From assembly GCA_964424195.1 (NCBI GenBank), contig CAYRHT010000004.1, positions 76,769 to 140,768 of the forward strand: DNA of 64,000 nt, read 5' to 3'. Under the pieces are notes generated by a model, which ran no database searches, was not told where the DNA came from, and saw only the letters and a program-made list of their open reading frames with translations. How positions within the stretch are numbered: the first letter of the stretch is position 1; every line of letters starts with the position of its first letter. The DNA comes from an uncultured Gammaproteobacteria bacterium. GTDB taxonomy: Bacteria; Patescibacteriota; Patescibacteriia; UBA1558; S5-K13. The translations under genes and the position numbers were made by a program. Positions 2,877 to 44,516 of the stretch are shown here, piece by piece.

Positions 2877-3269
2877 ATGATGACCGATCCAATAGCGGAT
2901 ATGCTAACAAGAATAAGGAATGCTCAAGCTGTTCATAAAGAAGAGTTGGCTTTGCCATTCTCAAAAATGAAATATGAGATTGCTAAATTATTAGCTAGAG
3001 AAAGCTTTATTGAATCAACTGAGAAGATTACAAATAAATTTGATGAAATCAAGATAGTTTTAAAGTATAAAGAAGATGGTCAGCCGAGTATTGAACACAT
3101 TAAGAGAATTAGTAAACCAGGACAAAGAATTTATGTTAAAAAAGATTCGCTTCCTAAAGTTTTAAACGATTTAGGAGTTGCTGTACTTTCTACATCTGAT
3201 GGATTAATGACTAATAAGAAAGCGAGAAGAGTACAAGTAGGTGGTGAATTATTATTTGAAATATGGTAA
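2877..3269 (+). CDS. rpsH: 30S ribosomal protein S8
   Basis: DPIADMLTRIRNA start, S8 family. Confidence 0.95.
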   Translation: MMTDPIADMLTRIRNAQAVHKEELALPFSKMKYEIAKLLARESFIESTEKITNKFDEIKIVLKYKEDGQPSIEHIKRISKPGQRIYVKKDSLPKVLNDLGVAVLSTSDGLMTNKKARRVQVGGELLFEIW

Positions 3270-14028: not shown

Positions 14029-14331
14029 ATGAAAATTGCAATAGTAAAAACTGGTGGAAAACAATATAAAGTTAAAGCTGGTGATAAATTTAAAGTAGAA
14101 AAACTAGTTAGTGAAGAAGGTAAATCTATTAAATTAGATGTTCTTTTAATGGCCGATGGAGATAAGGTTGAAGTTGGAACTCCAATGTTAAAAGATAAGG
14201 TTGAAGCTAAAGTTATTCGACAGTTTAGAGATAAAAAGATTAGAGTTGTTAAATACAAGAATAAGACTAGATATTGTAAGGTTTATGGTCACAGACAACA
14301 TTTAACTGAATTAGAAGTTACTAAAGTATAA
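14029..14331 (+). CDS. rplU: 50S ribosomal protein L21
   Basis: MKIAIVKTGGKQYKV.AGD.FKVEKL...YCKVYGHRQHLT. Confidence 0.9.
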   Translation: MKIAIVKTGGKQYKVKAGDKFKVEKLVSEEGKSIKLDVLLMADGDKVEVGTPMLKDKVEAKVIRQFRDKKIRVVKYKNKTRYCKVYGHRQHLTELEVTKV

Positions 14332-14407: not shown

Positions 14408-14848
14408 TTACCATCCATACTCGCTATAAAACTTTTTGTCTTTAATTTGCTCAAAGACAAATCTAATATAATCAATAGTATTATCAGGTAGATTATCTAT
14501 TGGAAACCACGACAAATCATCACACTTATTAGGCTCCATGTTTTTGACTTCATCTTGCTGTTTATTAGTTATAAAAAAAGCATCTACCCACTCAACCTTT
14601 TCTTCTGATTTTCGATGCATAATATGTACTATATTTACATCATCTGTTTTTAATGTGATTCCTATTTCTTCTTTAACTTCCCGAATTAAAGTCTGAGTAA
14701 ATGTTTCATTTTTTTCTACATGACCAGAAGGAATGCCATATTTTCCGTCATTATAGCCCGTATTATAACGACGCTGTAATAATACTTTATTATCTTTCAT
14801 TAATATAAGATAAGAGGCGGTCATATTATGGGGTTTCTTTTTATTCAT
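14408..14848 (-). CDS. NUDIX hydrolase
   Basis: Nudix box GHVEKNETFTQTLIREVKEEIGI. Confidence 0.8.
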   Translation of the reverse strand: MNKKKPHNMTASYLILMKDNKVLLQRRYNTGYNDGKYGIPSGHVEKNETFTQTLIREVKEEIGITLKTDDVNIVHIMHRKSEEKVEWVDAFFITNKQQDEVKNMEPNKCDDLSWFPIDNLPDNTIDYIRFVFEQIKDKKFYSEYGW

Positions 14849-14858
14849 GATTTTATAT

Positions 14859-15158
14859 TTAAGTAGCTAATTTAAATTTTTTTACTTTATTTTTTAAAAT
14901 AGGACTGAGAACTCGTCTTTCTTTTTCAAGATTATAATGTAGTTGAAGATTAAGCCAGAATTCAGGAGAATTATTAAAGTATTTTGCTAATCTCAAGGCT
15001 GTATCAGCAGTAATAGCTCTTTTGTTTTTAACAATTTCACTAATTCTAATAGCAGGAACATTAATGTCCTTTGCTAAACGATACATAGTGATATTAAGGG
15101 GTTTTAAAAATTCTTCTTTTAATATTTCACCAGGATGAATTTGTTTTATTTTACTCAT
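14859..15158 (-). CDS. higA: HigA antitoxin (XRE-family HTH)
   Basis: IHPGEILKEEFL.PL.I..YRLAKDI.VPA.RISEIV..KRAITADTALRLAKYF. Confidence 0.85.
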   Translation of the reverse strand: MSKIKQIHPGEILKEEFLKPLNITMYRLAKDINVPAIRISEIVKNKRAITADTALRLAKYFNNSPEFWLNLQLHYNLEKERRVLSPILKNKVKKFKLAT

Positions 15159-15162
15159 ATAT

Positions 15163-15444
15163 TTAATGATAATCTATTATTTGGACTTGATAAGCATGAC
15201 CATTATTCCATTCAAATATTATTCGCCATTGATCGTTGATCCGAATACTATGTTTATTCTTAAATTTACCTTTCATCAGTTTAAGATGATTAGAAGGAGG
15301 AGTATGTAAATCATTTAAAGAAATAGAAGCTTCTAAAATTAATAATTTCATCAAAGCTTTCTTTTGAATTGAAGTAGGTAATTTTTTAGAATATTCATAA
15401 TTGAATATCTTTTTAGTTTCTTTACAATTAAAAGTTTTAATCAT
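15163..15444 (-). CDS. higB: HigB toxin (RelE/ParE superfamily)
   Basis: ...LKLMKGKFKNKHSIRINDQWRIIFEW..GHAYQVQIIDYH; 4 nt upstream of higA. Confidence 0.8.
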   Translation of the reverse strand: MIKTFNCKETKKIFNYEYSKKLPTSIQKKALMKLLILEASISLNDLHTPPSNHLKLMKGKFKNKHSIRINDQWRIIFEWNNGHAYQVQIIDYH

Positions 15445-15507
15445 AATCGCTTTTCTTATTTTTAATAATAACGTAAGACGATAATATTGTCAAGCGTTAT
15501 TAGTCTT

Positions 15508-15600
15508 TTATTCCAACCTCTTCCTATCCTCTAAAGCTGAAGAAAGAGTTAGTTCGTCAGTGTATTTTAAATCAGAGCCCATAGGGATCCCTTGAGATAA
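15508..15600 (-). pseudogene. Duplicated recR 3'-end fragment (encodes ...GIPMGSDLKYTDELTLSSALEDRKRLE-stop)
   Basis: About 73% nt identity to recR 3' end at 16582-16665, with a 22-nt perfect core (15545-15566 = 16604-16625); mostly synonymous differences. Confidence 0.6.
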
Positions 15601-15608
15601 ATGATTTA

Positions 15609-15956
15609 TTATTTAGTATGAGTAGGAGGTATTGAATTTACTTTAGTATTAAATTTAATTATTCCAGGGATAAGTAATGTATTCATGTATGAATTTGACC
15701 TACAATAATTATTTAAACAAAATGTTTTAGCATTACAATGACTATCACATCTTGTACCCATGCTCCATTCATTAGGTTTACAGAACTCAGTAATTCTTTC
15801 TGAAGTACAATCTAAATAGGTATCACAAGGAATATATTTTTTATTCAATTCACAGTTAATTTGATATGAATTTTTTGATAGATAATTATAATATCCATAG
15901 CCCACAAGAATGAAGAGTAATATAATTAACAAAATCCATTTAAGATATTTTTTCAT
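15609..15956 (-). CDS. Small signal-anchored Cys-rich protein (115 aa, 10 Cys)
   Basis: N-terminal hydrophobic helix then Cys-rich domain; unknown family. Confidence 0.5.
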   Translation of the reverse strand: MKKYLKWILLIILLFILVGYGYYNYLSKNSYQINCELNKKYIPCDTYLDCTSERITEFCKPNEWSMGTRCDSHCNAKTFCLNNYCRSNSYMNTLLIPGIIKFNTKVNSIPPTHTK

Positions 15957-16010
15957 ATTATTTTACTCATATATTCACAAGCTTAGCTTAATTTATTTGT
16001 GTATAATGAT

Positions 16011-16271
16011 TTATTGATAAACATCGTGATTTCCTACAGAATGAAAATATACTGTATTTTTCTTTTTACTAAATTCAAAAATTATTCGATATTTATAACC
16101 AATTGAGAATGATAAAAACTTTTTAAGTCTACCTTTTAATTTATGTGTTTTTAGTTTTGGGTTGCGCGGATTTCGACGAAATATTACTTCATGCTCCTCA
16201 GCAATTGTTTTTACAGACGAGGGTAGTTTTCGATATTCTTTGGCAAATTTTGAACTATAGATAATTTTCAT
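16011..16271 (-). CDS. RelE/StbE-family type II toxin
   Basis: ...HKLKGRLKKFLSFSIGYKYRIIFEF....VYFHSVGNH..VY; adjacent antitoxin. Confidence 0.8.
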   Translation of the reverse strand: MKIIYSSKFAKEYRKLPSSVKTIAEEHEVIFRRNPRNPKLKTHKLKGRLKKFLSFSIGYKYRIIFEFSKKKNTVYFHSVGNHDVYQ

Positions 16272-16280
16272 AGATAGTGA

Positions 16281-16496
16281 TTATCTTAAGTTTTTTAGAG
16301 ATTTTAAAGTTTTACCTTTGCCTGATATAATTTCCTGACGACTTTCATTAAGTTCGTTTAATAGTTTTCCGGCTTGCCAATCGCGTAAAAGATCACGAAA
16401 AAATTCACTAGTACTGATATATTGTTCTTTTTTTACAAAAGTTTTTACATTTTTAGCCATTTGAGATGGCATAGAAATATTAATTATTTCTCGCAT
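16281..16496 (-). CDS. Type II antitoxin (RHH, ParD/RelB-like)
   Basis: 71 aa, SEFFRDLLRDW motif; 9 nt upstream of RelE-like toxin. Confidence 0.65.
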   Translation of the reverse strand: MREIINISMPSQMAKNVKTFVKKEQYISTSEFFRDLLRDWQAGKLLNELNESRQEIISGKGKTLKSLKNLR

Positions 16497-16566
16497 AAGT
16501 TTAAATTAATTGTAATATATTGTATTACAATATTAACACACTGTAAATTTTTGTCAATGAGATATT

Positions 16567-17160
16567 CTAATTTAACTTTTTCCTATTCTCCAGAGCAGAG
16601 GAGAGAGTTAGTTCGTCAGTGTATTCTAGGTCTGAACCCATGGGAATACCTCTAGCTAAACGAGTAATAGTTATATTAGAGTTCTTAAAGATGTTTTTTA
16701 AATAAGTAGTAGTAGCTTCTCCTTGAATGTTAGCATCAAATGCTAGAATAATTTCTTTAACATTGTTGTTTTTAATTCTATTTACTAATTCTTTTATAAA
16801 TAGCTTGTCGGGAGTCATACCTGAGAGAGGATCGATAAGACCACCAAGAATATGATAAACTCCATTGAACTTACCAGTAGATTCCATAACTTCTAAGTCG
16901 CTAGTATTAGCAATAACACAAATAGTATCTTTCTGACGATTAGAACTACTACAAATAGGGCAGGGGTTAACATCAGAGAAGTTATTACATAACTGACAGA
17001 CCTTTAGTTCTTTAGTATTATGTAAAGCTCTCATAAAGTCATCTATCTTAGCTTTAGGTTTTGAAGCCAAAAAAAGAGCAAGACGCTCAGCTGATTTAGG
17101 GCCAATGCCCGGCAGAGTCATCAATTGCTCTATTAAGTTTTTTATTATATTTGGATACAT
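16567..17160 (-). CDS. recR: Recombination protein RecR
   Basis: C4 zinc finger CQLCNNFSDVNPCPIC, Toprim domain. Confidence 0.95.
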   Translation of the reverse strand: MYPNIIKNLIEQLMTLPGIGPKSAERLALFLASKPKAKIDDFMRALHNTKELKVCQLCNNFSDVNPCPICSSSNRQKDTICVIANTSDLEVMESTGKFNGVYHILGGLIDPLSGMTPDKLFIKELVNRIKNNNVKEIILAFDANIQGEATTTYLKNIFKNSNITITRLARGIPMGSDLEYTDELTLSSALENRKKLN

Positions 17161-17448
17161 TTAGAAATTGAAGTTAGGCATAGATATTTCTCCATTTTTC
17201 ATCTTCTCAGCCATCATTTTTTGAACCTTATTAGTAGCATTAGAAAATAGTTCAGGAATAATACTTTCAATTGTTGAGTTTTCCATATCTTCTGGAATAC
17301 TTAGAGAAAGTACTTTTTGATTACCATCCATTTTTAAAACAATACCTCTTTGTTCTACTTCTACATTCTCTTGAGAAAGAGTATCTTGCATACTCTTAGC
17401 TTGAGCTTTTAAATCTTTAATTTGGTTTAATTTGGAGAACATATTCAT
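17161..17448 (-). CDS. ybaB: Nucleoid-associated protein YbaB/EbfC
   Basis: YbaB similarity; conserved ybaB-recR pair. Confidence 0.9.
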   Translation of the reverse strand: MNMFSKLNQIKDLKAQAKSMQDTLSQENVEVEQRGIVLKMDGNQKVLSLSIPEDMENSTIESIIPELFSNATNKVQKMMAEKMKNGEISMPNFNF

Positions 17449-17469: not shown

Positions 17470-18885
17470 TTATACTTCTATTGGTTCTGGACTTGCATCT
17501 GCTCGTTTTTCTAGACTCTTGAAACTAACTGTTTCTAGATCGAAAAAGGTTTTAACCATTCCAGTTGGACCATTCCGATGTTTAGCAATATGGATTTCAG
17601 CAATTCCTTTCTCCTCAGGAGTTAGGTCTTCTAAACGATAGTTTCTATCTGCTGCTTTTCGATAGATAAACATTACTACATCAGCATCTTGTTCTATTGT
17701 ACCAGACTCTCGAAGATGAGCCAATTTAGGTATCGCAGGTTTAGTTTGTTCTACAGCACGAGAAAGCTGAGATAGGGCAATGATTGGAATATTTAATTCT
17801 CGAGCAATGTTTTTTAAACCTCTAGTGATTTCAGCAACTTCTTGAACTCGATTCTCTTTATTTCCCTTAGATTCCATCAACTGTAAATAATCAATGATTA
17901 AGAGAGAAAGGTTATGTTCTAATTTTAATCTTCGAGCTTTAGTTCTAATCTGCATGATATTTAGGGAAGCAGAGTCATCGATAAATATCTTTGCTTCAGA
18001 GAGAGTTCCCATAGCATGTCCTATTTTTGGAAAGTCATCATGTTCAGCTTTATCAGATAATCTACCAGTTCTCATTTTCCATAATGATACTCCAGCTTCA
18101 GAACAGAGGATTCTATCCACTAATTCTTCTTTACTCATTTCTAAAGAGAATAGTCCAATTGTTTCTTTACCACTTACAGCAGCATGACGAGCAATATCTA
18201 AAGCTAGAGATGTTTTACCAACAGAGGGCCGAGCCGCGATAATAATTAGGTTAGATTTTTGGAAACCAGCTAGGACATTATCTAAATCAGGAAATCCAGT
18301 TGGAACACCTCTGAGTTTACCTTTATTCTTATGCAATTCATCAATCCTATCAAAAGTATCATTTAAAACACTAGAAATTGGTATAAAGTTTTCTCGGAGG
18401 AACTTTTGGGATATTTGAAAAAGCTTTCTTTCAGAATTATCTAAAACATCATCAACTACATTAGTTTCATCATAGGCTAGACTAATGATCTCTTGAGAGG
18501 CTTTTAATAATCTTCGGAGAGTGGCTTTCTTTTGAACTATTTCAGCGTAGTATTTTACATTACCAGCAGTAACTACAGAGTTAGTTAAACTAGCTAAATA
18601 TGATTTACCACCAATGTTTTCCAATTCTTTTCTGTCTTCTAGAGAGTTAGCAACTGAGAGTAGATCAATTGGTTCTCTTTTTTCATAGAGTTCTAAACAA
18701 GATTCATATATTTTCTGATGAGCATTTCGGTAAAAATCTTCAGGATTTAAAATATCAGCAATCTTGTTAATTGCTTCATCATCAATTAAAATAGAGCCCA
18801 AGACATTAGCTTCAGCTTCTAAATTATGTGGAGGTATCTTATCAATACTTTCAGACTTATTTATAGTAGTTATTTTTTTATTCAT
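17470..18885 (-). CDS. dnaB: Replicative DNA helicase DnaB
   Basis: GFPDLD.., Walker A ARPSVGKTS, full-length DnaB similarity. Confidence 0.95.
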   Translation of the reverse strand: MNKKITTINKSESIDKIPPHNLEAEANVLGSILIDDEAINKIADILNPEDFYRNAHQKIYESCLELYEKREPIDLLSVANSLEDRKELENIGGKSYLASLTNSVVTAGNVKYYAEIVQKKATLRRLLKASQEIISLAYDETNVVDDVLDNSERKLFQISQKFLRENFIPISSVLNDTFDRIDELHKNKGKLRGVPTGFPDLDNVLAGFQKSNLIIIAARPSVGKTSLALDIARHAAVSGKETIGLFSLEMSKEELVDRILCSEAGVSLWKMRTGRLSDKAEHDDFPKIGHAMGTLSEAKIFIDDSASLNIMQIRTKARRLKLEHNLSLLIIDYLQLMESKGNKENRVQEVAEITRGLKNIARELNIPIIALSQLSRAVEQTKPAIPKLAHLRESGTIEQDADVVMFIYRKAADRNYRLEDLTPEEKGIAEIHIAKHRNGPTGMVKTFFDLETVSFKSLEKRADASPEPIEV

Positions 18886-33888: not shown

Positions 33889-35496
33889 ATGTTTTTGTCA
33901 AAAAACAATAAAGTTAATTTTAAAGTAACTGTTGCCAGTTTAGTTTTGGTATCAACAGTTATTTTTTTTATACCTTTAATTTCATCAGCTCAAATATTAG
34001 TTCCTCAAGTTGCTAATCTAGGAACAGCAGATATTAAAACAATGGCTGGAACACTTATTCAAGTATTCCTAGGTCTTTTAGGTTTAATTGCTTTAGTGAT
34101 AATTATTTATGGTGGATATGTTTGGATGACTTCTGGTGGTAATGAAGAAAAAGTTACTCAAGCTAAGAAAATATTAACATCAGCAGTGATTGGCATTATA
34201 ATTATTATGACTTCCTATGTTATAACTAGTTTTATATTAGAATCTGTTCAAAATAATTCTGGTAATAATGGTTCTAATAATCCGAATGGTAACAACATTA
34301 GTACTGGTTTAGGAAGCGGGGCTTTAGGAGGTGGTTTAATTGAATATCACTATCCAGAAAGAGATGCTGACGATGTTCCTCGAAATACTATGATTATGAT
34401 TACTTTTAAAACACCAATAGCTTTAGAGAGTGTTATTGATGGTAATTTTGGAAATGATGCTACTTGTGATCCTTATATCACAGAAGAAGGAATTGAGTGT
34501 GGAAAGTTAAGTGAAAAGATTCAAATTTTAGATAATGGATTTTTAAGAGATAATGAAATGATTATTGCTGTTTTAACTGCAGATGCTCAAAGAGTTTTAA
34601 TTAAACCAATAGAGGCTCTAGGAAATGAAGATTCAAATACTAATACTACTATTCGTTTAGCTTCTGATATGGAAAGTGTCGAAGGACAGACCTTATTTCC
34701 AGGATTAGAAAATGGTTATAGTTGGCAATTTGAAATTAGTACCTTTCTAGATTTAACTCCTCCAGAAGTTACTTTTGTTTGGCCAGCTCAAGATGATATA
34801 GTAGCTCGAAATGCAATTGTGCAAATTAATTTTTCAGAACCAATAAACATTTTAAGTGTTGATGGTAATATTCTTATTCAAGATGATGATAATTTAACAG
34901 GTGAGCTAAAAATTAGTAATCAATATCGAACTGTAGAATTTTTATCAGATGGAGACTGTGGTGGAGTAAATATCAATTCTTGTGGTGAGAAGGTTTTCTG
35001 TTTACCAGCTACTTCTTTAATTAGAGGAGTTGTTGATAATATTGGTGATGCTTCGGGAAATATTATGTCCGAAGAATATCTTTGGACTTTTAGCACTAGT
35101 AATGAAGTAAATACTACTGCTCCAGAAATTACTAATGTTTCTCCAAGTACAATTAATGTTCAAATCAATCCTAATCCTCAAATTTCAGCAATTTTTGATA
35201 AAGTTATTAGTCCGAGTTCTTTAAATACGGATAATTTTTATATCTATAATAATAGTGCTTGTGATGGAGAAGAATATGAAGATCAAGAAGGAAAGAGTCG
35301 AATCAATAATATTTGTTTGCCATCCTATTCAGTTTTTGCGAACGAAGATAATCATAGATGTAATATTAAATTGTATGCACCATACTTAGATCAATTTTCT
35401 AATTATCGTCCTCGTTTAACTTCAGAAATTAAAGATTCTTATGGAAATTGTTTTAATAGTGCTATTGGACCAGGTGGTAGTGGACAACAAAATTAG
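33889..35496 (+). CDS. Surface protein: signal peptide + two-helix pilin-like N-module, then Ig-like (Big_5-type) repeats (535 aa)
   Basis: N-terminal 115 aa about 80% identical to start of next gene; PPEVT/APEIT Big-like repeat starts. Confidence 0.6.
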   Translation: MFLSKNNKVNFKVTVASLVLVSTVIFFIPLISSAQILVPQVANLGTADIKTMAGTLIQVFLGLLGLIALVIIIYGGYVWMTSGGNEEKVTQAKKILTSAVIGIIIIMTSYVITSFILESVQNNSGNNGSNNPNGNNISTGLGSGALGGGLIEYHYPERDADDVPRNTMIMITFKTPIALESVIDGNFGNDATCDPYITEEGIECGKLSEKIQILDNGFLRDNEMIIAVLTADAQRVLIKPIEALGNEDSNTNTTIRLASDMESVEGQTLFPGLENGYSWQFEISTFLDLTPPEVTFVWPAQDDIVARNAIVQINFSEPINILSVDGNILIQDDDNLTGELKISNQYRTVEFLSDGDCGGVNINSCGEKVFCLPATSLIRGVVDNIGDASGNIMSEEYLWTFSTSNEVNTTAPEITNVSPSTINVQINPNPQISAIFDKVISPSSLNTDNFYIYNNSACDGEEYEDQEGKSRINNICLPSYSVFANEDNHRCNIKLYAPYLDQFSNYRPRLTSEIKDSYGNCFNSAIGPGGSGQQN

Positions 35497-35525: not shown

Positions 35526-38500
35526 ATGATCAAGAAGAAAAAGAATATATTTAGATTATTAACCCTTTCGATGATAGGTATTTTTGCTTTACCTTTAGTT
35601 TCTTTTGCTCAAATATTAGTTCCGCAGGTTGCTGGTTTAGGAACAGCAGATATTAAAACAGTAGCTGGAACACTTATTCAAGTATTCTTAGGTCTCTTAG
35701 GTTTAATTGCTTTAGTAATTGTTTTAGTCGCTGGTTTTAAATGGATGACTTCTGGTGGTAATGAAGAAAAAGTGTCAGAAGCTAAGAAAATGTTAATAGC
35801 AGGAGTAATTGGTCTAGTAATTATTATGGCTTCTTATGTAATAACTAGTTTTATATTAGATAGTATTCAGGGAGCTATAGATGGTCCAGGAGAAGATGAT
35901 CAAACTTGTTCAGTTGGAGTCTGTTATACTTGTAATCGATGTGATTCTGATGGTGATTTAATCTACGACAATACTTGTCCGGGGTGTAATAATTCAATAG
36001 CTGATTTTAATTTTAGAACAAATTGGTATAGTCCTCAGAGCAATAATGTTTCACTTTGTTCAATGATTCAAATTAAGTTTAATGCTAATCTAGATCAAGA
36101 TTATTTTAATGATAATATTAAGCCTGGTTCAACACCAATTGGAACCAGTCAATCTCAAAGTCTCTTTCATTTTTATGAATGTTTAGAATATGCTGATAAT
36201 CAGTGTGTTAAAGTAAGCGATGATTTAGTAGAAAATAGTTCTCAATTTACAATTAATGAAAATATTTTACAATTTAGATTAGGGGAAGATTATGCGGAAG
36301 ATACTTATTATGTTGTTGATTTACCTTTGAAGGGCATTAAGCAAGAAGGAGAGAGTAAGTATTTAAGTAATAATTTAACCTGGACTTTTAAAACTGGAAA
36401 AGAAACAGATATTAATCCACCAACAGTCATTAATGTTTTTCCAGGACCAGAAGGAGAGGTTTGTTTAAATTCTTATATCGAGATTGAATTTTCTGAGGAT
36501 ATGGATTTGAATTCCTTAAAAGACCTAGAAGCTTTCCGTTTATATGAAAATATACCAGATAATTTAAGTGATATAGAGTTTTTACATAGTGTTCAGAATG
36601 ATAAGTTAATTGTTCATCCAGATCGGAATTATAATTTAAATCATAATTACTTCCCAGTATTAAATGGGGATGTTATTAAAGATACTTGTGGTAATTTACT
36701 AGATGGTGATTTTGATGGAAAATCAGAATATGCTCCAACAGATGATTATCCAACTAATGGTCCTAGTGTTGCTTGGAATTTTAAAACTGGAGAAAATGAA
36801 TATTGTCAGCCTCAGATTACTGGAGTAACTTCTGAAACATATTATGATGATGATTCACCTTTAACTATAACTGGTCATTATTTATCAGGCGGAACTACTT
36901 TGGTTTTTAATGATGATCTTGTAATTGATGAAAACAGTAATCTATGTTTAAACGATTCCTATTGGCCAGATGATTTATGTGCTGCTGGAACCTGGGAAGT
37001 CAATGAAATAAATACCTTTATTCCAGCTGATGGAGGAGATAGTTTTGGAGTAATAGCTGAGAAACCTTCTATTAAAATTCAAACAGATCAGGGTTCAACA
37101 GAGGAAAACTTTGCTTTATTAAGTCCAAGAATAGTTAAAATATCACCAGACAGAGGTGGTAAAGGACAATATATTAGTGTTCTAGGTAATAATTTTGATG
37201 AATTTCAGGATATTAATTTTGCAGAATCTAAAATCTTTTTTAGATCAGAAAGTGATGAATATTTAGAAGCTGATTTACCATGTGATAAAGAAGGATGGAA
37301 AAATAATTCTATTGTTATAACTGCACCAGAAGGACTGGAAGTTAATAGTTCTTACAGAATTCAAATTAAAAAAGTTTTAGTAAATGATGTCGAATACTGG
37401 AGTAATTTAGGAGATTATTATTATAATGAAGAAGATGCTGGTCCAGGTTTATGTTCTATTAACAAAGAGACTATTGAATATGAAGACGAGTTTATTTTAG
37501 ACGGTTTTAAATTAGGAGATTCTAATATAGAGAGAAGAGTTGTTTTAGGAGATGACTATAATTCTACTTCAGCACCAACAATTAATTGGGGAGATCCAGT
37601 AGATGGACAAGATACTAGAGTTGTAGCTCAAGCGCCTAATCTAGCTAGTGCTGATGATATTGGTGTTCGAGTAGCAGTAGAAATAGATGGTGAATTAAGA
37701 TTTAGTAATTATTTAAATGTAGATGTTCTGTCTGATTTTTCAGATCAATTTTATATAAGTTATATTTCTCCAGAAGTAGCTTCAGTAGGTGAGTATATTA
37801 CTATCTATGGTTCAGGATTTGGTAATAGTCAAGGAGATCAAACAGTTAGATTTTATAACAATACATTCACTTGGCCAGAAGGAGATTTTAATTTTCCAGA
37901 AGCTTGCTCTAGTGTTTACTGGCAGGATGATCAGATCATTGTTAAAGTACCAGAAATATTTACTACTCTTCCTTTTGAGTCTCAGATTAAAGTTGTTAAT
38001 GATCAAATTGAAACTGCTGCAGTTGCAGTAGAAATTGATGATGAAGATCCTGCTCCTTCAATTTGTAGTGTTAATCCAGAACTTGGAACTTTGGGAGATG
38101 AATTAGAAATTATTGGGGAATATTTAAATGATGTTGATTGGCTTACCTTTGCTTATGAAACAGATGATGCTTTGGATATTAGACCAAATAGTACTAATAA
38201 AGGTGTAGTTGAAGTTAGTGTTCCAGAAACTAATACTGGTTTAATCTCTGCTCATAATACTAGCGGTTATGGAAATACTTGGAATTTTGAATATCAAAAA
38301 GTAGAAGAAGGTCCAGCAGAAGAATGGGATTTCTATGGTTGGGAGTTTACTACTTGTACTCAATGTGAGAGTCCGCGAGTCAGAGTTCAATCTTGTGATG
38401 CTGAACTTAAGTTTTCACCTTCACCTGCTCCAGGGAATAAATTTGTACCTTTAGGTTCTAATGTTTATATCGAATTTGAATATCAAGATGAAGATCCTGC

Positions 38501-41500
38501 GGAAATGAATATTAGGAGTTATCAGAATAATTTTAATATTTATGAATGTTCTGATGGAGACGCACCTCTAGAGTTAGAATATTGTAATGAGCTTAAATCT
38601 TTTAATTCTGTAGAAGCGAATACTTTTTTAGAAATAAATACTTTAGATTTTCAAGCAGGATATTGGTATCGAGGAGAGTTATTAGACGAGATTAAAGATA
38701 TAGAAGGTTCTAGTTTAAATGAATATTCTTGGTATTTTAGAATAGATCCTTATGGGGCAATATGTGAACCAGATACTTTAAATATTGAACCTAATAATTT
38801 TGTAAAGACCTATGTAGCTAATGATACTCTTACTTATACAGGATTGTTAGTTGATAGTGAAAATTGTTATGTTTGTGCTAGTGATGGTTATGATTATGAT
38901 TGGGAGAGTAGTGATACAAGTTTAGCTACTATTGCTAATAATAATACTTCAGAAACTGATGTAACTTTAAATGATTATTATAATTTTGGTAATTTAGAAA
39001 TTAGAGCTACTTCTACTTTAGATACTTTAGAGTTAGCTGATGATACAAATTTATACATCGTAGCTAATTGTTCTATTTATGAAGACTCAACAACTTGTCA
39101 TGATAGTGGAGAATGTTGTTGGGATGGAGAAACTTGTGGTTCAGATATGAGTGTTTGTGATGAAGATTGTTTAGTCTATACAGAAGTAGATACTTGTGAA
39201 GCTGATACTTGTTGTTGGGCTAACGAAGAATGTCTCTTTGAAAATAATCCAGATTGTGGTTTACCAATAGATTGTTCTATTTATGAAGACTCAAAAACCT
39301 GTCATGAGAGCGGTGAGTGTTGTTGGGATAGTGGTGATATTTACTCAACTACACCTGAAGGAGGTATTTGTAGTGATGATATGACAGCTTGTGATGAAGA
39401 TTGTTTAGTATATAAAGAAGTAGAGACTTGTGAAGCTGATGCTTGTTGTTGGGCTAATGAAGAGTGTTTATTTGAGAATAATTCAGCTTGTGATTTTGAG
39501 ATAGAAGATCCGGAAGTTGATCCAGTTCTAGATGATTTAATGATCTTATCAAATTATCCAAGAAATGAATCTTCTAATATTTGTCCTAATACTTTGATTA
39601 AAGTGGAATTTGATTTACCAGTAGATGCTGATAGCTTAGAGGGTAATATTGAGTTATTAGAGAGTTCAAGTTTTGGTTCTGCGGCAAATATTGATTTTAC
39701 CTATTCTTCTTACAGAAGATATGATGGAACTTCCGTTTTAGAAATAATTCCTCAAGGGATTTTAGATTCAACAACAATATATCAAGTTAATCTATTAGAT
39801 GGTGAAAATGGTATTAAATCTAATGAGGGTGGGGGATTATCTTGTGATAGTTCTTCTAATGGTAGTATTAATAATGGAAGATGTGATTGGAGTTTTACTA
39901 CAGCTGCTAATGTTTGTGATTTAAGTTATGTGAAAATAGTTAATCCAGTAGATAATTATTATGAATTTAATACTCCAATGATTGGAGAAACCTTTATTGC
40001 TGAAGCTAGAACAATTTCTGGAGATCCAATAGTATCAGTAGCTGGAGTCTATGATTGGCAATGGAAGTGGGAATCTTTTGATGAATCATTAGTGACTTTA
40101 GCAGGAGATAATTCTGATTCTGTTTTAGTTATGCCAGCTAATAATAATGGTACAACAATAGTTGAAGTTAATGCTCTTCAAATTCCATCAGAATCAATTT
40201 GTAATGATTATAGTCAGGCAAGTTGTGAAATTAATTCTTGTTGTTGGGTAGATGGTGTTTGTAGTGCAAATCTAGAAACTTGTGAAGAAAATTTATTAAG
40301 TTTTGCTGGTAAATCTGGTTACAAGGGAATAACTTTGAGTGATGAAGTAGAAGTTGAATTATTTATGTGTGAAAATTCTTGGGCATTTGAAGATAGAAAT
40401 TTTAATTTTAAGTTTAAATATTGTCGAGATGGAGGACTACCTTATTTAGCAGATTCTTTAGAAAATGGTTTGATTATAAATGATTTTGAAGCGGTAGAGG
40501 GAGAAGATTCTTTATTAAGAGAATATATATTTAAATATATACCTGATCCTAATCAACAGGCTAATTCAGGAAATTATAATTTAGTAGATGCTAAATCAAA
40601 TAATAGTCTTATGTCAGAAGTAGGAATTTCTGGTTTAGCAGATAATCAATTAGGATTTAAATTCTTGTCTAAAATATTTAGAGGAGCTGTTTCTTATTTT
40701 TCTAATAATAGAGTTTTGGCAGCCACTCCATCAGGTCAAGGAATTTTACCAAACGATATCTTGGGTTTAAGAATATATCAGAACAAGAATCATTATTCTC
40801 CTATTGCTTGGTATTCTTCTACTAATGTAGTTAATTTTAAAGGTTCACCAAATCCTATTTCGATAAATGGTTATCAAGGTCTTAAAGATGGTCGAACCAC
40901 TTATGTTAATGCTGCTAACAAAGTAGATAATAGTATTTATACAAACATTTCCTTAATTTCTCATAATCAAGATGCTATCTTAGAAACTGTAAATATATTT
41001 AATCAGTTAGTAGATAATTGGAAGTTTAATATTAATATGCGTCCTGATTCTAAATCTCAACTAATTGAAGATGTTCAAAGATGGGAAGATTTAAGAAGAA
41101 TGGAAAGTAATTTAGATAATTATGCTGCTCAGAATAAATATTGTGCTTATGTTTCTGATCCTGTGGCTGGAGCTTGTGGTACCTATCCAATTCAATATTA
41201 TCATTTTGATTTAAATGGTAACAAGACTATTGATTCAGCAGAATGCTATAACGTTTCTGCAACAAAATCATGTAGTAGTGACTCTGAATGTCAGAATAAT
41301 GATATGGGTTATGATCAGTGTGTAGGTGTTTATCCAGAGCTTAATGAAGGAACTTATGTTCAAGGAATATCAACTTCTGCTTGGCCTTCTTGGAATTCTA
41401 CTTTGGCTAATCAAATGGGAACCTCTTTACCAATTGATCCTGTAAATGAATTTAATTCTTGTAGTGCTTCTTATGATCAGCAAACTTGTTGGGATGTTGA

Positions 41501-44500
41501 AGGACAGACATTCTCTTGTCCAAGAGATTCACATATTTATTATTATCAAGCAAGTAATAGTAATAATATAGATAAAAGAGCTTTAAGTTTTAATTTATAC
41601 AGTTTATTTAATTTTAATACTAAGAATGATAGTTATTGGAATGGTAGTGGTATAAATAGGACTTTTAATTCAGCAATTAATAGTTTTAATAGTCTTAACT
41701 TAAATAATTATGATGTTTGTAATGATCAAGTTTCAGCTACTTGTGGAAACGGTATTAAGGAATTAGGAGAAGAGTGTGAGTACGGTCAAACATTATCTTT
41801 GTGCAGTAACATTACCCATAGAGGATATTATAATCCTACTGAAGTTGGTTGTCGTTATGATTGTCAGTGGCCAGCTCATATCAATGATCCAGAAGATTGT
41901 TTAAGTTGTGGAGATGGTGTATTTAGTCCAGAATATGGAGAAGTTTGTGAACTTGGTCAATCAGAGATGTTCTGTGAAGACAGTTGGAATCCTCAAGAAG
42001 TTTCTTGTGTTGCTTGTCAGTGGCCAGATTTAGATGAATGTGAATATTGTGGAGATGGTGTTTGTGATATTGATCTTGATAATAATGGTGTTCCTTTTGA
42101 AGGAAGTGATCCAGGAGAAGATAATTTTTGTTATCAAGATTGTGAAGATGGATGTGGTGATGGTATTTGTGATCATGAGTTTGAAGATGCTTATTCTTGC
42201 TATATTGATTGTGGTGATTGTGGTGATGAAATAGTATCTGGCTGGGAGGAATGCGATTTGAATATTGGTGAAGAATGTTTAGCTGGTGATTATGGTGGAC
42301 ATTATCAATGCATAAATAGTGGAGATGATGAATGTACTTGGTCTGATGAATGTACTCCAGATGGTAATTGTGGTGACGGAGTTGTAAATGGTAATGAATT
42401 ATGTGAAATTAATGATATTGGTCCACAGTGTGAGAGAAATACGGATGCTTATTGGGGTAATCGGGAATGTATTGTTACTACTGAAACTCAACCATATAAT
42501 TCAGAAGATTGTTTTTGGCATCTTAATACAGAAGAGGATAATATTTGGTGTCCAACAGATGAATCATGTGGTGACGGAGCTATTAATGGTCTTGAAGAAT
42601 GTGACGATGGAAATAATGCAAATGAAGATGGTTGTGATTCTAATTGTTTATTAGAATGTGGTAATGGTGAGATTGAGCCTTTAGAAGAATGTGACGATGG
42701 AAATAATGTAAATGAAGATGGTTGTGATTCTAATTGTTTGTTTGAATGTGGTAATAGTCAACATGAATATTGGGAAGTTTGTGACGAAGGATCTTATAAT
42801 AACGATGATTGCTCTCCTTATTATCAATTTGAACAATCTGGACATACTTATTGTCAGACTGATTGTTTGTCTGAGTGTACGGTACAAGGTAATTATTGTG
42901 GTGATGGAATTGTTCAATCTTCTTATGAGGACTGTGATACTCCTGGTTTATTAGAAATTTATACAGAGAAGAAGATGGAGATAGTATTTATTTTTGATAT
43001 GACTTCTAGTATGGGTGATGCTGCAACTGAATTATGTGGTGCTTTAGGGTCTGTAGCGTCAGATTTATATGAAAGAAAAGAAAACAATGAAATACAAGAT
43101 TATAAAATTACAGTTATGACATTGGGTGATTTAGAAGATGGAATTTTGAATAATAATCCTAATGATAACATTATTAGGACTGATGGTAATAATCCTTTGG
43201 TGTTTAATAATTTAGTTACTAATTGTGGAGTTTATCAAAATCTTAATAATTCATCTTATCCAGAATATGATAATATATCATATGCGAGTTTTTGGGATAA
43301 TGATAATAATAATTTAAATATTAATTTACCATCAGATGATAGTGAATGGTTTAATAATCTTTGTGGCCCAAATGGTCAAGGAGATACACAAGAGCATTGG
43401 GGATATGCAGTTGAAAAAGTAGCAACAAATTATAATTGGGAAAATGATTATCAAAGAATAATTATACCAGTTAGTGATGAGGCTGCTTATTGTGGAAATG
43501 ATTTTAATGATTATGATGATTATGATGAATCGACTTCTAATGGTAATGCATTGGATGGTTGGAATTTTACGGAAATATTAGTAGATACTGTTAACGCTTG
43601 TAATAATTCTGATCAACAAATTTATTTAAATCCCGTATTAATAAATACTGAACTTGCTGGTTTGTATTATAGCGGTCATCCTAGTTATAATGTAGCACAG
43701 GCAATTGCTGATGATACCGGAGGTGTTTTTAATAATACTACAGATAATTGGGCAGAAAGTATTATAAGTCTTGTTGATCACCTTTTCTGTGATGGTAATG
43801 GTGATGGTTATATGGATTGTTTTTTTAGTGGTGATATTCAAGATGTATGTACTTCCTGGACTTATTCAGCATGGAGTGAGTGTATAAATGGTCAACAAAC
43901 AAGAAGTATTCTTTCTTCTTCTCCAGATGACTGTATTAATGGAAATTCTATTTTAACTCAAAATTGTGACGTGTGCGTTTCCTGGACTTATTCAGCATGG
44001 AGTGAGTGTATAAATGGTCAACAAACAAGAGAGGTTTTAACTTCTTATCCATATAATTGTATTGATGGAGATCCTGTTTTAACTCAAAATTGTGCCGGAG
44101 AGGACGAATGTGCAAATAACTATGTTACAAATGGTAATTTTTCATCTGGTTTTAATTGTTGGAATTCAAGTACAAATTTTGAGAATATGAATACTGATAA
44201 TAATATATTTGAAGTAAATATTATTGGTGGAGGGAGTAATAATATGTATTTTTCATATGATAATTTTCTTTTTATAGAAGGTGAAACATATAAATTATCT
44301 TTTGATTATGATACAACATCTGATCTTGTGCTTGGAGTTAGTAGTGTTTCTGGTTCTTCTATGCCTATTGGTGTAATGAGTTCTTATTGTACTGTTGATA
44401 GTTGTGAGTGGATTTTTACAGCATCTTCTCAGCAATTCCTATTTTCATTCCCACCAAATGTAAATAATCAGACAATGCATTTAGATAATATTGAGATTGT

Positions 44501-44516
44501 CCATATACCCGATTAA
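35526..44516 (+). CDS. Giant (2,996 aa) multi-domain surface protein: pilin-like N-module, Ig-like repeats, Cys-rich repeats, VWA, TSP1-like repeats, CBM-like tail
   Basis: Uninterrupted 8,991-nt ORF; CG[DN]G..EECDDGN.NEDGCDSNC repeats; MIDAS FDMTSSM; W-S-x-W-S-E-C repeats. Confidence 0.75.
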   Translation: MIKKKKNIFRLLTLSMIGIFALPLVSFAQILVPQVAGLGTADIKTVAGTLIQVFLGLLGLIALVIVLVAGFKWMTSGGNEEKVSEAKKMLIAGVIGLVIIMASYVITSFILDSIQGAIDGPGEDDQTCSVGVCYTCNRCDSDGDLIYDNTCPGCNNSIADFNFRTNWYSPQSNNVSLCSMIQIKFNANLDQDYFNDNIKPGSTPIGTSQSQSLFHFYECLEYADNQCVKVSDDLVENSSQFTINENILQFRLGEDYAEDTYYVVDLPLKGIKQEGESKYLSNNLTWTFKTGKETDINPPTVINVFPGPEGEVCLNSYIEIEFSEDMDLNSLKDLEAFRLYENIPDNLSDIEFLHSVQNDKLIVHPDRNYNLNHNYFPVLNGDVIKDTCGNLLDGDFDGKSEYAPTDDYPTNGPSVAWNFKTGENEYCQPQITGVTSETYYDDDSPLTITGHYLSGGTTLVFNDDLVIDENSNLCLNDSYWPDDLCAAGTWEVNEINTFIPADGGDSFGVIAEKPSIKIQTDQGSTEENFALLSPRIVKISPDRGGKGQYISVLGNNFDEFQDINFAESKIFFRSESDEYLEADLPCDKEGWKNNSIVITAPEGLEVNSSYRIQIKKVLVNDVEYWSNLGDYYYNEEDAGPGLCSINKETIEYEDEFILDGFKLGDSNIERRVVLGDDYNSTSAPTINWGDPVDGQDTRVVAQAPNLASADDIGVRVAVEIDGELRFSNYLNVDVLSDFSDQFYISYISPEVASVGEYITIYGSGFGNSQGDQTVRFYNNTFTWPEGDFNFPEACSSVYWQDDQIIVKVPEIFTTLPFESQIKVVNDQIETAAVAVEIDDEDPAPSICSVNPELGTLGDELEIIGEYLNDVDWLTFAYETDDALDIRPNSTNKGVVEVSVPETNTGLISAHNTSGYGNTWNFEYQKVEEGPAEEWDFYGWEFTTCTQCESPRVRVQSCDAELKFSPSPAPGNKFVPLGSNVYIEFEYQDEDPAEMNIRSYQNNFNIYECSDGDAPLELEYCNELKSFNSVEANTFLEINTLDFQAGYWYRGELLDEIKDIEGSSLNEYSWYFRIDPYGAICEPDTLNIEPNNFVKTYVANDTLTYTGLLVDSENCYVCASDGYDYDWESSDTSLATIANNNTSETDVTLNDYYNFGNLEIRATSTLDTLELADDTNLYIVANCSIYEDSTTCHDSGECCWDGETCGSDMSVCDEDCLVYTEVDTCEADTCCWANEECLFENNPDCGLPIDCSIYEDSKTCHESGECCWDSGDIYSTTPEGGICSDDMTACDEDCLVYKEVETCEADACCWANEECLFENNSACDFEIEDPEVDPVLDDLMILSNYPRNESSNICPNTLIKVEFDLPVDADSLEGNIELLESSSFGSAANIDFTYSSYRRYDGTSVLEIIPQGILDSTTIYQVNLLDGENGIKSNEGGGLSCDSSSNGSINNGRCDWSFTTAANVCDLSYVKIVNPVDNYYEFNTPMIGETFIAEARTISGDPIVSVAGVYDWQWKWESFDESLVTLAGDNSDSVLVMPANNNGTTIVEVNALQIPSESICNDYSQASCEINSCCWVDGVCSANLETCEENLLSFAGKSGYKGITLSDEVEVELFMCENSWAFEDRNFNFKFKYCRDGGLPYLADSLENGLIINDFEAVEGEDSLLREYIFKYIPDPNQQANSGNYNLVDAKSNNSLMSEVGISGLADNQLGFKFLSKIFRGAVSYFSNNRVLAATPSGQGILPNDILGLRIYQNKNHYSPIAWYSSTNVVNFKGSPNPISINGYQGLKDGRTTYVNAANKVDNSIYTNISLISHNQDAILETVNIFNQLVDNWKFNINMRPDSKSQLIEDVQRWEDLRRMESNLDNYAAQNKYCAYVSDPVAGACGTYPIQYYHFDLNGNKTIDSAECYNVSATKSCSSDSECQNNDMGYDQCVGVYPELNEGTYVQGISTSAWPSWNSTLANQMGTSLPIDPVNEFNSCSASYDQQTCWDVEGQTFSCPRDSHIYYYQASNSNNIDKRALSFNLYSLFNFNTKNDSYWNGSGINRTFNSAINSFNSLNLNNYDVCNDQVSATCGNGIKELGEECEYGQTLSLCSNITHRGYYNPTEVGCRYDCQWPAHINDPEDCLSCGDGVFSPEYGEVCELGQSEMFCEDSWNPQEVSCVACQWPDLDECEYCGDGVCDIDLDNNGVPFEGSDPGEDNFCYQDCEDGCGDGICDHEFEDAYSCYIDCGDCGDEIVSGWEECDLNIGEECLAGDYGGHYQCINSGDDECTWSDECTPDGNCGDGVVNGNELCEINDIGPQCERNTDAYWGNRECIVTTETQPYNSEDCFWHLNTEEDNIWCPTDESCGDGAINGLEECDDGNNANEDGCDSNCLLECGNGEIEPLEECDDGNNVNEDGCDSNCLFECGNSQHEYWEVCDEGSYNNDDCSPYYQFEQSGHTYCQTDCLSECTVQGNYCGDGIVQSSYEDCDTPGLLEIYTEKKMEIVFIFDMTSSMGDAATELCGALGSVASDLYERKENNEIQDYKITVMTLGDLEDGILNNNPNDNIIRTDGNNPLVFNNLVTNCGVYQNLNNSSYPEYDNISYASFWDNDNNNLNINLPSDDSEWFNNLCGPNGQGDTQEHWGYAVEKVATNYNWENDYQRIIIPVSDEAAYCGNDFNDYDDYDESTSNGNALDGWNFTEILVDTVNACNNSDQQIYLNPVLINTELAGLYYSGHPSYNVAQAIADDTGGVFNNTTDNWAESIISLVDHLFCDGNGDGYMDCFFSGDIQDVCTSWTYSAWSECINGQQTRSILSSSPDDCINGNSILTQNCDVCVSWTYSAWSECINGQQTREVLTSYPYNCIDGDPVLTQNCAGEDECANNYVTNGNFSSGFNCWNSSTNFENMNTDNNIFEVNIIGGGSNNMYFSYDNFLFIEGETYKLSFDYDTTSDLVLGVSSVSGSSMPIGVMSSYCTVDSCEWIFTASSQQFLFSFPPNVNNQTMHLDNIEIVHIPD

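Follow-up and report, generated by a model that had tools for sequence, protein, structure and literature searches.

How a block of unrelated accessory genes comes to lie between an intact housekeeping gene and a second, partial copy of that gene's own 3' end is the question raised by the recR locus of a 64-kb stretch of a Patescibacterial genome (contig CAYRHT010000004.1; the whole stretch of 64,000 nucleotides is called the window below, and unlabelled positions refer to it). On the minus strand, the intact recR gene (16567..17160, 197 aa) is followed by a predicted toxin-antitoxin (TA) pair and a gene for a small cysteine-rich protein, after which the end of recR appears once more as a remnant, termed X (15506..15609). 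A first-pass annotation had taken this arrangement as the footprint of one site-specific integrative element that targeted the 3' end of recR and rebuilt it from its own attP. The comparison with related genomes points rather to serial displacement of the recR 3' tail at a recombination hot spot, with the displaced tail copies then acting as portable homology, a reading to which a probability of about one half can be given.

The anatomy of the repeat comes first. A repeat finder returns a direct repeat of 104 nt, 15506-15609 against 16565-16668, with a spacing of 1059 nt, and the two copies are identical at 78 of the 104 positions (75%, close to the roughly 73% first reported for slightly shorter limits). 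The segment 16565-16668 is the tail of the functional gene, whose product has the Pfam domains RecR_HhH, RecR_ZnF, Toprim_4 and RecR_C and ends in ...RLARGIPMGSDLEYTDELTLSSALENRKKLN before the stop. X begins directly after the stop codon of the Cys-rich gene and holds 31 codons and a stop (15508-15603); it stays open to that stop, ending in ...GIPMGSDLKYTDELTLSSALEDRKRLE, and its minus-strand translation closes with ...HLSQGIPMGSDLKYTDELTLSSALEDRKRLE. Since a profile of recR tails matches X with E = 2.8e-23, the repeat did not arise by chance. The first-pass annotation was right that the differences are mostly synonymous (14 synonymous against 7 non-synonymous codons), and yet several of the replacements (A>S, R>Q, E>K, N>D) mark X as a decaying fragment, for at the residues concerned none of the 13 functional RecR tails in the comparison varies. 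It was also right that the copy stems from a different allele and not from a local paralogue, as X is closest to the functional recR tail of a relative, L099 (87%), and only 76% identical to its own resident tail. Judged from these alignments, X is a recR pseudogene fragment from another allele that has drifted since. It is the sole gene-tail repeat in the window, where the remaining repeats are intragenic protein repeats; the remnant motif is absent elsewhere in the window, and an Rfam search at the remnants matched no family.

Within the repeat there is a single perfect run of 22 nt (15545-15566 = 16604-16625; P about 0.04 at 75% identity), which had been described as a core. It provides no evidence for a crossover core, as it reflects the conserved block of YTDELTL codons and is shared without a difference by the functional recR genes of relatives L010 and L014. 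Three other origins for the repeat, namely a diverged local tandem duplication, the template and variable repeats of a diversity-generating retroelement (DGR) and mis-assembly, are taken together hardly credible. On the surface, the reappearance of a gene 3' end about 1 kb further downstream, with some 75% identity, is reminiscent of a DGR repeat pair, and DGRs are common in bacteria of the candidate phyla radiation (CPR). The mismatches here are not restricted to adenine, which stands at 9 of the 26 mismatched positions in one copy and at 7 of them in the other; 18 of the 26 are transitions, and there is no reverse transcriptase among the neighbouring genes. Tandem duplication might be suspected from one relative, L100, in which a remnant stands just 3 nt past the recR stop, and is contradicted in the window by X, which resembles the functional allele of a different lineage more closely than it does the resident gene. 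Finally, independent assemblies from several samples, made with several assemblers, gave the arrangement on at least 16-24 contigs, one of them 952 kb long, and it is therefore no assembly artefact.

The setting of the repeat was examined in a clade set of 17 genomes and contigs (RecR 71-94% identical), drawn from genome and metagenome collections and distinguished here, where needed, by labels such as L099; the nearest named relative of the window is a Candidatus Komeilibacteria metagenome-assembled genome. All 17 clade members conserve dnaB-ybaB-recR on one side and rplU on the other, and the intervening genes differ in every species examined. Their products include TA pairs, P-loop kinases, Nudix, GNAT, GrpB, MazG-like, GIY-YIG and histidine phosphatase proteins as well as unknowns, and in one genome the array is reduced to recR, a gene for 91 aa and rplU. 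The stretch from recR to rplU can be seen as a hypervariable accessory-gene array in one Patescibacterial clade, into which new DNA probably enters at the recR-proximal end.

What stood behind recR before the present arrangement can be read from three of these relatives. In L099/L113 (RecR 91%) and L093 (79%), a HigBA operon lies directly behind recR, and X together with the 60-nt leader behind it and HigBA is colinear with the recR tail, leader and HigBA of L099/L113 (88.2% over 735 nt) and of L093 (75.7% over 807 nt). The window's HigBA is 88% identical in amino acids to that directly behind recR in L099/L113. Relative to the L099-type arrangement, the window has a 1,059-nt insertion and a target duplication of about 100 nt, and HigBA was probably the earlier first cassette behind recR in the window's lineage. 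The notion that DNA had been inserted between recR and a former neighbour thus stands, and so does the prediction of an empty site as far as the comparison between species goes; within the window's own species no empty site was found, every contig being occupied without polymorphism. The two observations that had been named as speaking against an insertion, i.e., the same arrangement everywhere with no empty site and a second copy that descends from an independent paralogue, are not what the relatives display.

The inserted interval is composite. Its genes are those first described, an RHH antitoxin (16281..16496, minus strand, 71 aa; Pfam RHH_1 at 21.5 bits, cut-off 20.5), a RelE/StbE- or YafQ-like toxin (16011..16271, minus, 86 aa; weak Pfam matches to YafQ, HigB and ParE, below their cut-offs) and a Cys-rich protein with an N-terminal hydrophobic anchor (15609..15956, minus, 115 aa), except that the count of cysteines is 8 and not 10. 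Colinearity with L108 (RecR 94%) extends from the tRNA-Lys upstream of dnaB up to and including the RelE stop, at 86.6%, which is the level of the core genes, so that RHH-RelE must be old in this lineage. Directly after the RelE stop lies an older recR-tail remnant of 25 nt, the vestige x (15986..16010, minus; ATCATTATACACAAATAAATTAAGC), identical at 21 of 25 positions to the start of the 59-nt remnant behind RelE in L104. This post-RelE remnant measures 59-61 nt in L104 and L013, with a very similar junction between RelE and remnant, and 58 nt in L116, and the window retains its first 25 nt only. The window therefore appears, from these alignments, to hold three recR-tail generations: the functional tail, the vestige x and the remnant X. 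In L013 and L104 the Cys-rich gene has its place further along the array, outside any repeat pair. As RHH-RelE has an older remnant of its own and the Cys-rich gene occurs at other positions, the interval is not the single integrative element for which it had been taken.

Displaced tails recur well beyond the window. They are found at cassette boundaries in 9 of the 17 clade genomes (the window, L013, L014, L093, L096, L099, L100, L104 and L116), and shorter vestiges, consisting of the last 10-15 nt or so plus the leader, occur in L011 and L115. The remnants follow RelE in L013, L104, L116 and the window, the Cys-rich gene in the window, a P-loop kinase gene in L014 (likewise L097 and L103) and HigA in L093, L099/L113 and L116; that of L100 adjoins recR itself, and that of L096 lies upstream of a methyltransferase gene. 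Every remnant begins 0-5 nt after the preceding stop codon. Their lengths range from 25 to 125 nt, the associated inserts are heterogeneous and of 0.4-1 kb, and their left ends vary (about -100, -58, -50 and -46 from the stop codon), which lends little support to the fixed att core that the first-pass annotation had implied. No array has more than two remnants, the number present in both the window and L116. In L116 the order of the TA units is opposite to that of the window, with HigA proximal and RHH-RelE distal, implying that each unit entered independently next to recR, and the L116 remnant after HigA precedes the RHH-RelE promoter, which in the window, L108 and L013 stands behind recR itself. 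No tail remnant was found outside the clade, as among 80 RecR loci from other species only clade members had them, and no remnant of the tail of rplU, the conserved gene on the far side of the array, was found anywhere. A scan of metagenomes with a remnant pattern gave nine matches, of which three lacking RecR or an array gene were discarded (one of them, L101, proved on inspection to hold retrotransposon-like open reading frames, ORFs).

These recurrences bear on the possibility that the window records one accident. An L099-like fragment with recR tail, promoter and HigBA might have been pasted illegitimately behind the Cys-rich gene, the piece of recR merely hitch-hiking, while the remnants elsewhere would be unrelated accidents, or descendants of one ancient duplication that were kept because tail and leader aid the expression of the next gene. 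Consistent with this, X and HigBA form a single colinear block against L099 and L093, the remnants always lie about 10-65 nt (mostly 10-30 nt) upstream of the next start codon, L011 and L115 have retained little more than the leader and the tail's last nucleotides, and the leader has been reused for different genes from an identical ATG. Such an origin is nevertheless improbable, because at least five junction types over nine genomes, two remnants within one array (window and L116) and the opposite TA orders indicate several independent events. Furthermore, X would be unnecessary for the expression of HigBA, given the predicted self-sufficient promoter behind it, and the Shine-Dalgarno-like AGGAAGAGG stands about 20 nt from the next ATG, too distant for a normal ribosome-binding site.

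The cassettes have also moved between lineages. Identity at third codon positions between the window and L013 is 0.55 for recR and rises to 0.75 for RHH, 0.79 for RelE and 0.70 for the Cys-rich gene, and the remnant of L013 is of the allele type of the window's group (by its ELT codons), unlike L013's own tail. The higher identity of the cassettes and the foreign type of the remnant mean that both passed from one lineage to another. In Patescibacteria the RelE family is very widespread and conserved, with 852 homologues of the window's toxin at E<=1e-10; the homologues among the 120 listed are 70-85% identical, and wherever a source name is given for them it is RelE/StbE or YafQ. An unrelated CPR genome (L109:420-487) has a near-identical promoter/operator (TTGACA...TGTTAATATTGTAATACAATNTATTACAATTAATTT) before such an operon beside gpsA, with neither recR nor a remnant. 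Together with the identity of the listed homologues, this shared promoter makes the TA module appear highly mobile among CPR bacteria. As a separate observation, the RHH-RelE-remnant block of L013 is bounded by the identical 12 nt TAAAAATAAATT, past the recR stop and past the remnant stop (L013:1790-1812 and 2484-2500); this repeat could be a crossover point or simply conserved post-stop sequence.

Serial displacement of the tail would bring these features together as follows. DNA from a related strain would pair homologously with the conserved dnaB-ybaB-recR, which is proposed as the homologous anchor, and its far end would be joined illegitimately, or through very short homology, within or just past the resident recR tail. 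The incoming DNA would bring a complete recR and a cassette, and the resident tail with its followers would be shifted downstream as a pseudogene remnant. An equivalent route would be a Campbell-type single homologous crossover of a circularised fragment carrying about 100 nt of recR tail. Once present, the tail copies would, as direct repeats, share homology with all recR tails in the clade, allowing RecA-dependent gain, loss and re-ordering of units of the form promoter-RHH-RelE-remnant and promoter-HigBA-remnant. The history of the window, read from the outside in, would begin with recR-HigBA as in L099, followed by the Cys-rich gene with X and then RHH-RelE with x; alternatively, a segment recR-RHH-RelE-x-Cys may have been laid on a recR-HigBA genome in one event. 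The anatomy, the colinearity with relatives, the recurrence and the horizontal exchange of cassettes are observed, and the enzymology and the roles of donor and recipient in this scheme are what we infer. The scheme has precedents. [quoted passage not shown]

A scheme of this kind would require no dedicated recombinase, and it explains the variable left ends, the nesting of remnants, the absence of a recombinase and the unbroken functional gene. The homology provided by the tail copies would further account for the conserved internal junctions, for stacking in either order and for transfer into a divergent host. When identity is binned along recR against the nearest relatives L090 and L103, it remains uniform through the 3' end, as expected if the whole gene accompanied a cassette and not a short attP-borne tail; the idea of a tail rebuilt from attP finds no identity break on which to rest.

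Several observations weigh against displacement by recombination. All remnants derive from the last 100 nt or so of a gene of 594 nt, and random illegitimate joints should leave longer pieces too, unless these are trimmed. The lack of rplU-tail remnants means that the process is polar or specific to recR, and homologous recombination over 45-100 nt at 80-90% identity is inefficient. In a comparison of eight remnant tails (the two of L116 were left out), the last 24 nt agree better from genome to genome (0.886) than do the hosts' own functional tails (0.781), and all eight keep CTAAC...GTTGG (CTAGC in L013), which can pair. This conserved pairing hints at constraint or at a shared mobile origin. 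Similarly, the arms of the hairpin-bearing remnants of L093 and L113 are identical at 42 of 45 positions, against 83% for the adjacent HigBA (P = 0.04). The restriction to the last 100 nt, the polarity towards recR and the conservation of the remnant tails are thus poorly explained. Moreover, every relative sampled belongs to another species, with a DNA divergence of 11% or more and at about the same distance (84-89% in nucleotides), so that the data reveal neither a recent event nor a donor or recipient, and microhomology at the junctions is unreadable; the identity bins along recR show no breakpoint that would distinguish donor from recipient.

The same observations lend themselves to a site-specific process in trans, in which the recR tail would be an attB (attI-like) site, the remnants would be attP- or attC-like sites borne by integrase-less cassettes, and a recombinase encoded elsewhere, be it integron-integrase-like, Xer-like as for integrative mobile elements exploiting Xer (IMEX) or other, would act on them. 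Events recur at one gene tail, and in one clade only among the RecR loci sampled; they are polar, as the missing rplU-tail remnants show. Inside the promoter-TA-remnant units the junctions stay similar, and behind recR the units are stacked in one order or the other. The L013 cassette occupies the same position behind recR at an identity of only 75% and is bounded by the 12-nt repeat TAAAAATAAATT. The tails of the remnants are conserved, with GTTGG in all eight compared, where functional tails drift at synonymous sites, and the longer remnants of L093, L096, L099 and L100 form long imperfect hairpins. The cassette repertoire, with TA modules, GNAT, Nudix and small unknown proteins in one orientation, resembles that of chromosomal integron arrays.

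Much of the remaining evidence does not fit such a process. Pfam searches of 29 proteins, covering the interval, the neighbouring genes and 20 further ORFs of the window (64 kb of a genome of about 950 kb), found no integrase or transposase, and hence no recombinase in the cassettes, the array or the 20 other ORFs. The remnants have left ends as much as 55 nt apart, and two of them (98 nt and about 60 nt) run well past any hairpin into recR coding sequence. With at most two remnants per array and no room for a site at most gene boundaries, the arrays are not punctuated by attC sites. The excised circular or phage forms carrying a recR-3' attP that the first-pass annotation had anticipated did not turn up either: viral contigs contained no exact 22-nt core, degenerate remnant pattern or relatives of RecR or RelE, blastn against phage and plasmid collections gave no match, and the metagenome pattern scan returned chromosomal contexts only and no circular form. 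No Rfam family and no polymorphism within the species came to the aid of this account. Integration at recR does seem to be undescribed, as had been supposed, no report of recR as attB having been found in the literature searched. A site-specific mechanism acting in trans is not the best-supported reading, and on balance it is rather unlikely.

Its most explicit form, in which the recR tail is a docking site, the remnants are hairpin sites with a CTAAC...GTTGG base and a variable centre, and a recombinase in trans inserts, excises and re-orders the cassettes, is decidedly unlikely. The remnants of L093, L096, L099 and L100 do fold as long imperfect hairpins (z = -3.6 to -5.7), whereas the window's X and functional tail fold no better than shuffled sequences (z = -0.5 and -0.65). 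The strong scores stem from a GC-rich hairpin inserted in the older remnants, and the hairpin-bearing remnants, which represent four distinct sequences, show no clean pairs of compensatory changes. In all, eight remnant sequences underlie the arguments from structure.

These inserted hairpins are an observation in their own right. One or two GC-rich hairpins, e.g., GCCTTGCCCCGTA...TACGGGGTGAAGG, lie in older remnants between AACYCTCTCC and GGAGAATAGGAAGAGGTTGG. The remnants that bear them are L100:2424-2550, L099:62-172 (minus strand), L096:2888-2980 (minus strand), L093:9256-9330 and L116:4045-4115; their genomes have about 28% GC, and the whole element forms a long branched hairpin (z to -5.7) that belongs to no Rfam family. 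Other palindromes occur in the same neighbourhood. The spacer between dnaB and ybaB has a conserved hairpin AATCCCGTTAGATAAAAATTATATCTTAATAAACGGGACTAAT in L011 (7478-7510), L093 (7442-7475), L100 (1313-1344), L097, L102 and L103, with an inverted copy elsewhere in L093 (3437-3470) and no pattern match in the window; it may be a regulatory or a repeat element. A genome-wide hairpin resembling repetitive extragenic palindromes (REP) or miniature inverted-repeat transposable elements (MITE) was considered for the remnants and rejected, the CCCGT...ACGGG hairpins of the dnaB-ybaB spacer being a different, AT-looped element. In L012, recR (2252-2875) has an in-frame GC-rich palindromic insertion of 30 nt that adds VYPHTSKSGG to the protein, and the dnaB-ybaB spacer (1640-1800) holds long GC-rich palindromes. 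Small GC-rich palindromic elements seem to invade these AT-rich genomes, coding sequence included. In L116, about 240 nt between recR and the leader (2932-3170) are unusually GC-rich, with palindromic CCGAAT/ATTCGG repeats.

The remaining features of the window's array are as follows. Upstream of recR on the minus strand lie ybaB/ebfC (17161-17448) and dnaB (17470-18885), both identified as ORFs with Pfam domains and colinear with all relatives of the clade. The promoter/operator of RHH-RelE (16497..16566, minus), found in a promoter scan, consists of TTGACA-16-TAATAT at 16557-16530 followed by the palindromic ATTGTA-A-TACAAT, and the same sequence stands upstream of RHH-RelE in L013, L104, L108, L116 and the CPR locus L109. 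Behind X follows the 'recR-downstream' promoter and leader of HigBA (15445..15505, minus; TAATAACGCTTGACA-17-TATTAT ... AAGAAAAGCGATTATG), the best promoter match of the region at 11/12. Both TA operons have near-consensus promoters upstream. HigB (15163-15444, minus; Pfam HigB-like_toxin, 72.3 bits) and the HTH antitoxin HigA (14859-15158, minus; HTH_3, 35.7 bits) complete this operon; with their family domains, adjacent toxin and antitoxin genes and promoters of their own, HigBA and RHH-RelE are predicted type II TA modules. Further on, a Nudix hydrolase gene (14408-14848, minus; Pfam) forms the distal part of the variable array, and the convergent rplU (14029-14331, plus; Pfam) is the boundary of the array in all relatives.

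The leader of HigBA directly follows an intact recR in L093, L099/L113 and L112 and lies about 250 nt downstream of recR in L116. It (TAATAACGCTTGACAATATTATCGTCTTGCGTTAATAT...AAGAAAAGCGATTATG) heads HigB in the window, L093 and L099, and the gene of a GIY-YIG nuclease in L112 and L116; in the last two (L112:2296-2360 and L116:3170-3232) GIY-YIG begins at the identical ATG, meaning that the gene was swapped exactly at the start codon. The Cys-rich protein is of narrow distribution, with three homologue clusters only in 5.8 billion proteins, all in recR-rplU arrays of this clade. Its family comprises the window gene (15609-15956), L013:4035-4532, L104:1141-1506 and L096:431-664; the protein of L013 is longer and has a second Cys-rich domain, which in L096 is a stand-alone protein of 77 aa. 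Elsewhere in the window, an ORF for 2,996 aa (35526-44516) has many internal Cys-rich repeats and shares about 294 nt at its N-terminus (83%) with the preceding ORF for 535 aa (33957-34250 against 35576-35869), the two having paralogous N-termini on adjacent, giant surface-protein-like genes.

Tiny genomes, a scarcity of recognisable mobile elements and the lack of genetics have left it poorly understood how CPR bacteria acquire accessory genes. Against this background, the repeated gain of genes at a single position can be read off from this locus, where displaced pieces of recR tag the events and TA operons move between lineages. If recombination drove it, short duplicated gene tails would make their neighbours portable without the machinery of a mobile element. 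If a recombinase is involved, the locus would represent a new gene-capture system, integron- or IMEX-like, with its attachment site inside a housekeeping coding sequence, in Patescibacteria. Either way, a duplicated gene tail bounding cargo is insufficient evidence for an integrase-mediated island.

Among known systems, a first comparison is with the islands and prophages that integrate at the 3' ends of tRNA or protein genes and restore these from attP, e.g., e14, which integrates at icd. There, as here, direct repeats of a gene tail flank the insert, the gene stays intact, the newest insert adjoins it and relatives have an unoccupied site. The present locus is unlike them in that it has no integrase in cis, tiny heterogeneous inserts, varying repeat limits and no foreign tail segment, and no excised form was found in the collections searched. 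Islands of the SGI1 type integrate at the 3' end of trmE (PMC8409611).

With integrons and clusters of attC sites lacking integron-integrases (CALINs), the arrays share polar insertion at a fixed site, small cassettes in the same orientation, many TA modules and, at the 3' end of some cassettes, an AAC...GTT hairpin base with a variable centre. They differ in having at most two repeats per array, many junctions shorter than 15 nt, repeats that are pieces of recR coding sequence and TA cassettes with promoters of their own; no IntI was found in the 64-kb window, and the structure of the window's own copy is statistically unsupported. Among the papers listed as naming both integrons and Patescibacteria, none stood out as describing integrons from Patescibacterial genomes.

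Transformable bacteria provide another comparison, the homology-facilitated illegitimate recombination reportedly described by de Vries and Wackernagel in 2002 and by Prudhomme et al. in 2002. The likeness lies in a long homologous anchor combined with a non-homologous or microhomologous joint, which adds foreign DNA beside conserved DNA (PMC3240628); the difference is that it is an experimental mechanism, whereas here there is a genomic structure in hosts whose natural competence, or other route of DNA uptake, is only presumed.

The 3'-end displacement arrays of rhs, contact-dependent inhibition (CDI) and T6SS loci offer the remaining comparison. These too have a conserved upstream gene followed by a variable array, with modules entering beside the conserved gene, and in both cases the old 3' end and its partners are shifted downstream as orphans in the same orientation, so that successive events are recorded. 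Those loci involve no dedicated recombinase, homology-facilitated illegitimate recombination being the proposal there, and the same is probable here. Such arrays were reportedly described by Jackson et al. in 2009 and are the subject of Kirchberger et al. in 2017 (PMC5361080). The likeness extends to detail, as the orphan recR 3' fragments precede genes that once stood behind an intact recR, namely HigBA and, in L116, the promoter of RHH-RelE. The cargo here consists of ordinary accessory genes and self-contained TA operons unrelated to RecR, the remnants measure only 25-125 nt, and the hosts are Patescibacteria. The polymorphic toxin domain that defines the other systems is absent, the anchor being the housekeeping gene recR with a displaced tail that is conserved, so that displacement leaves the protein unchanged. 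If recombination is indeed the driver, the logic of 3'-end displacement known from polymorphic-toxin loci would extend to a housekeeping gene.

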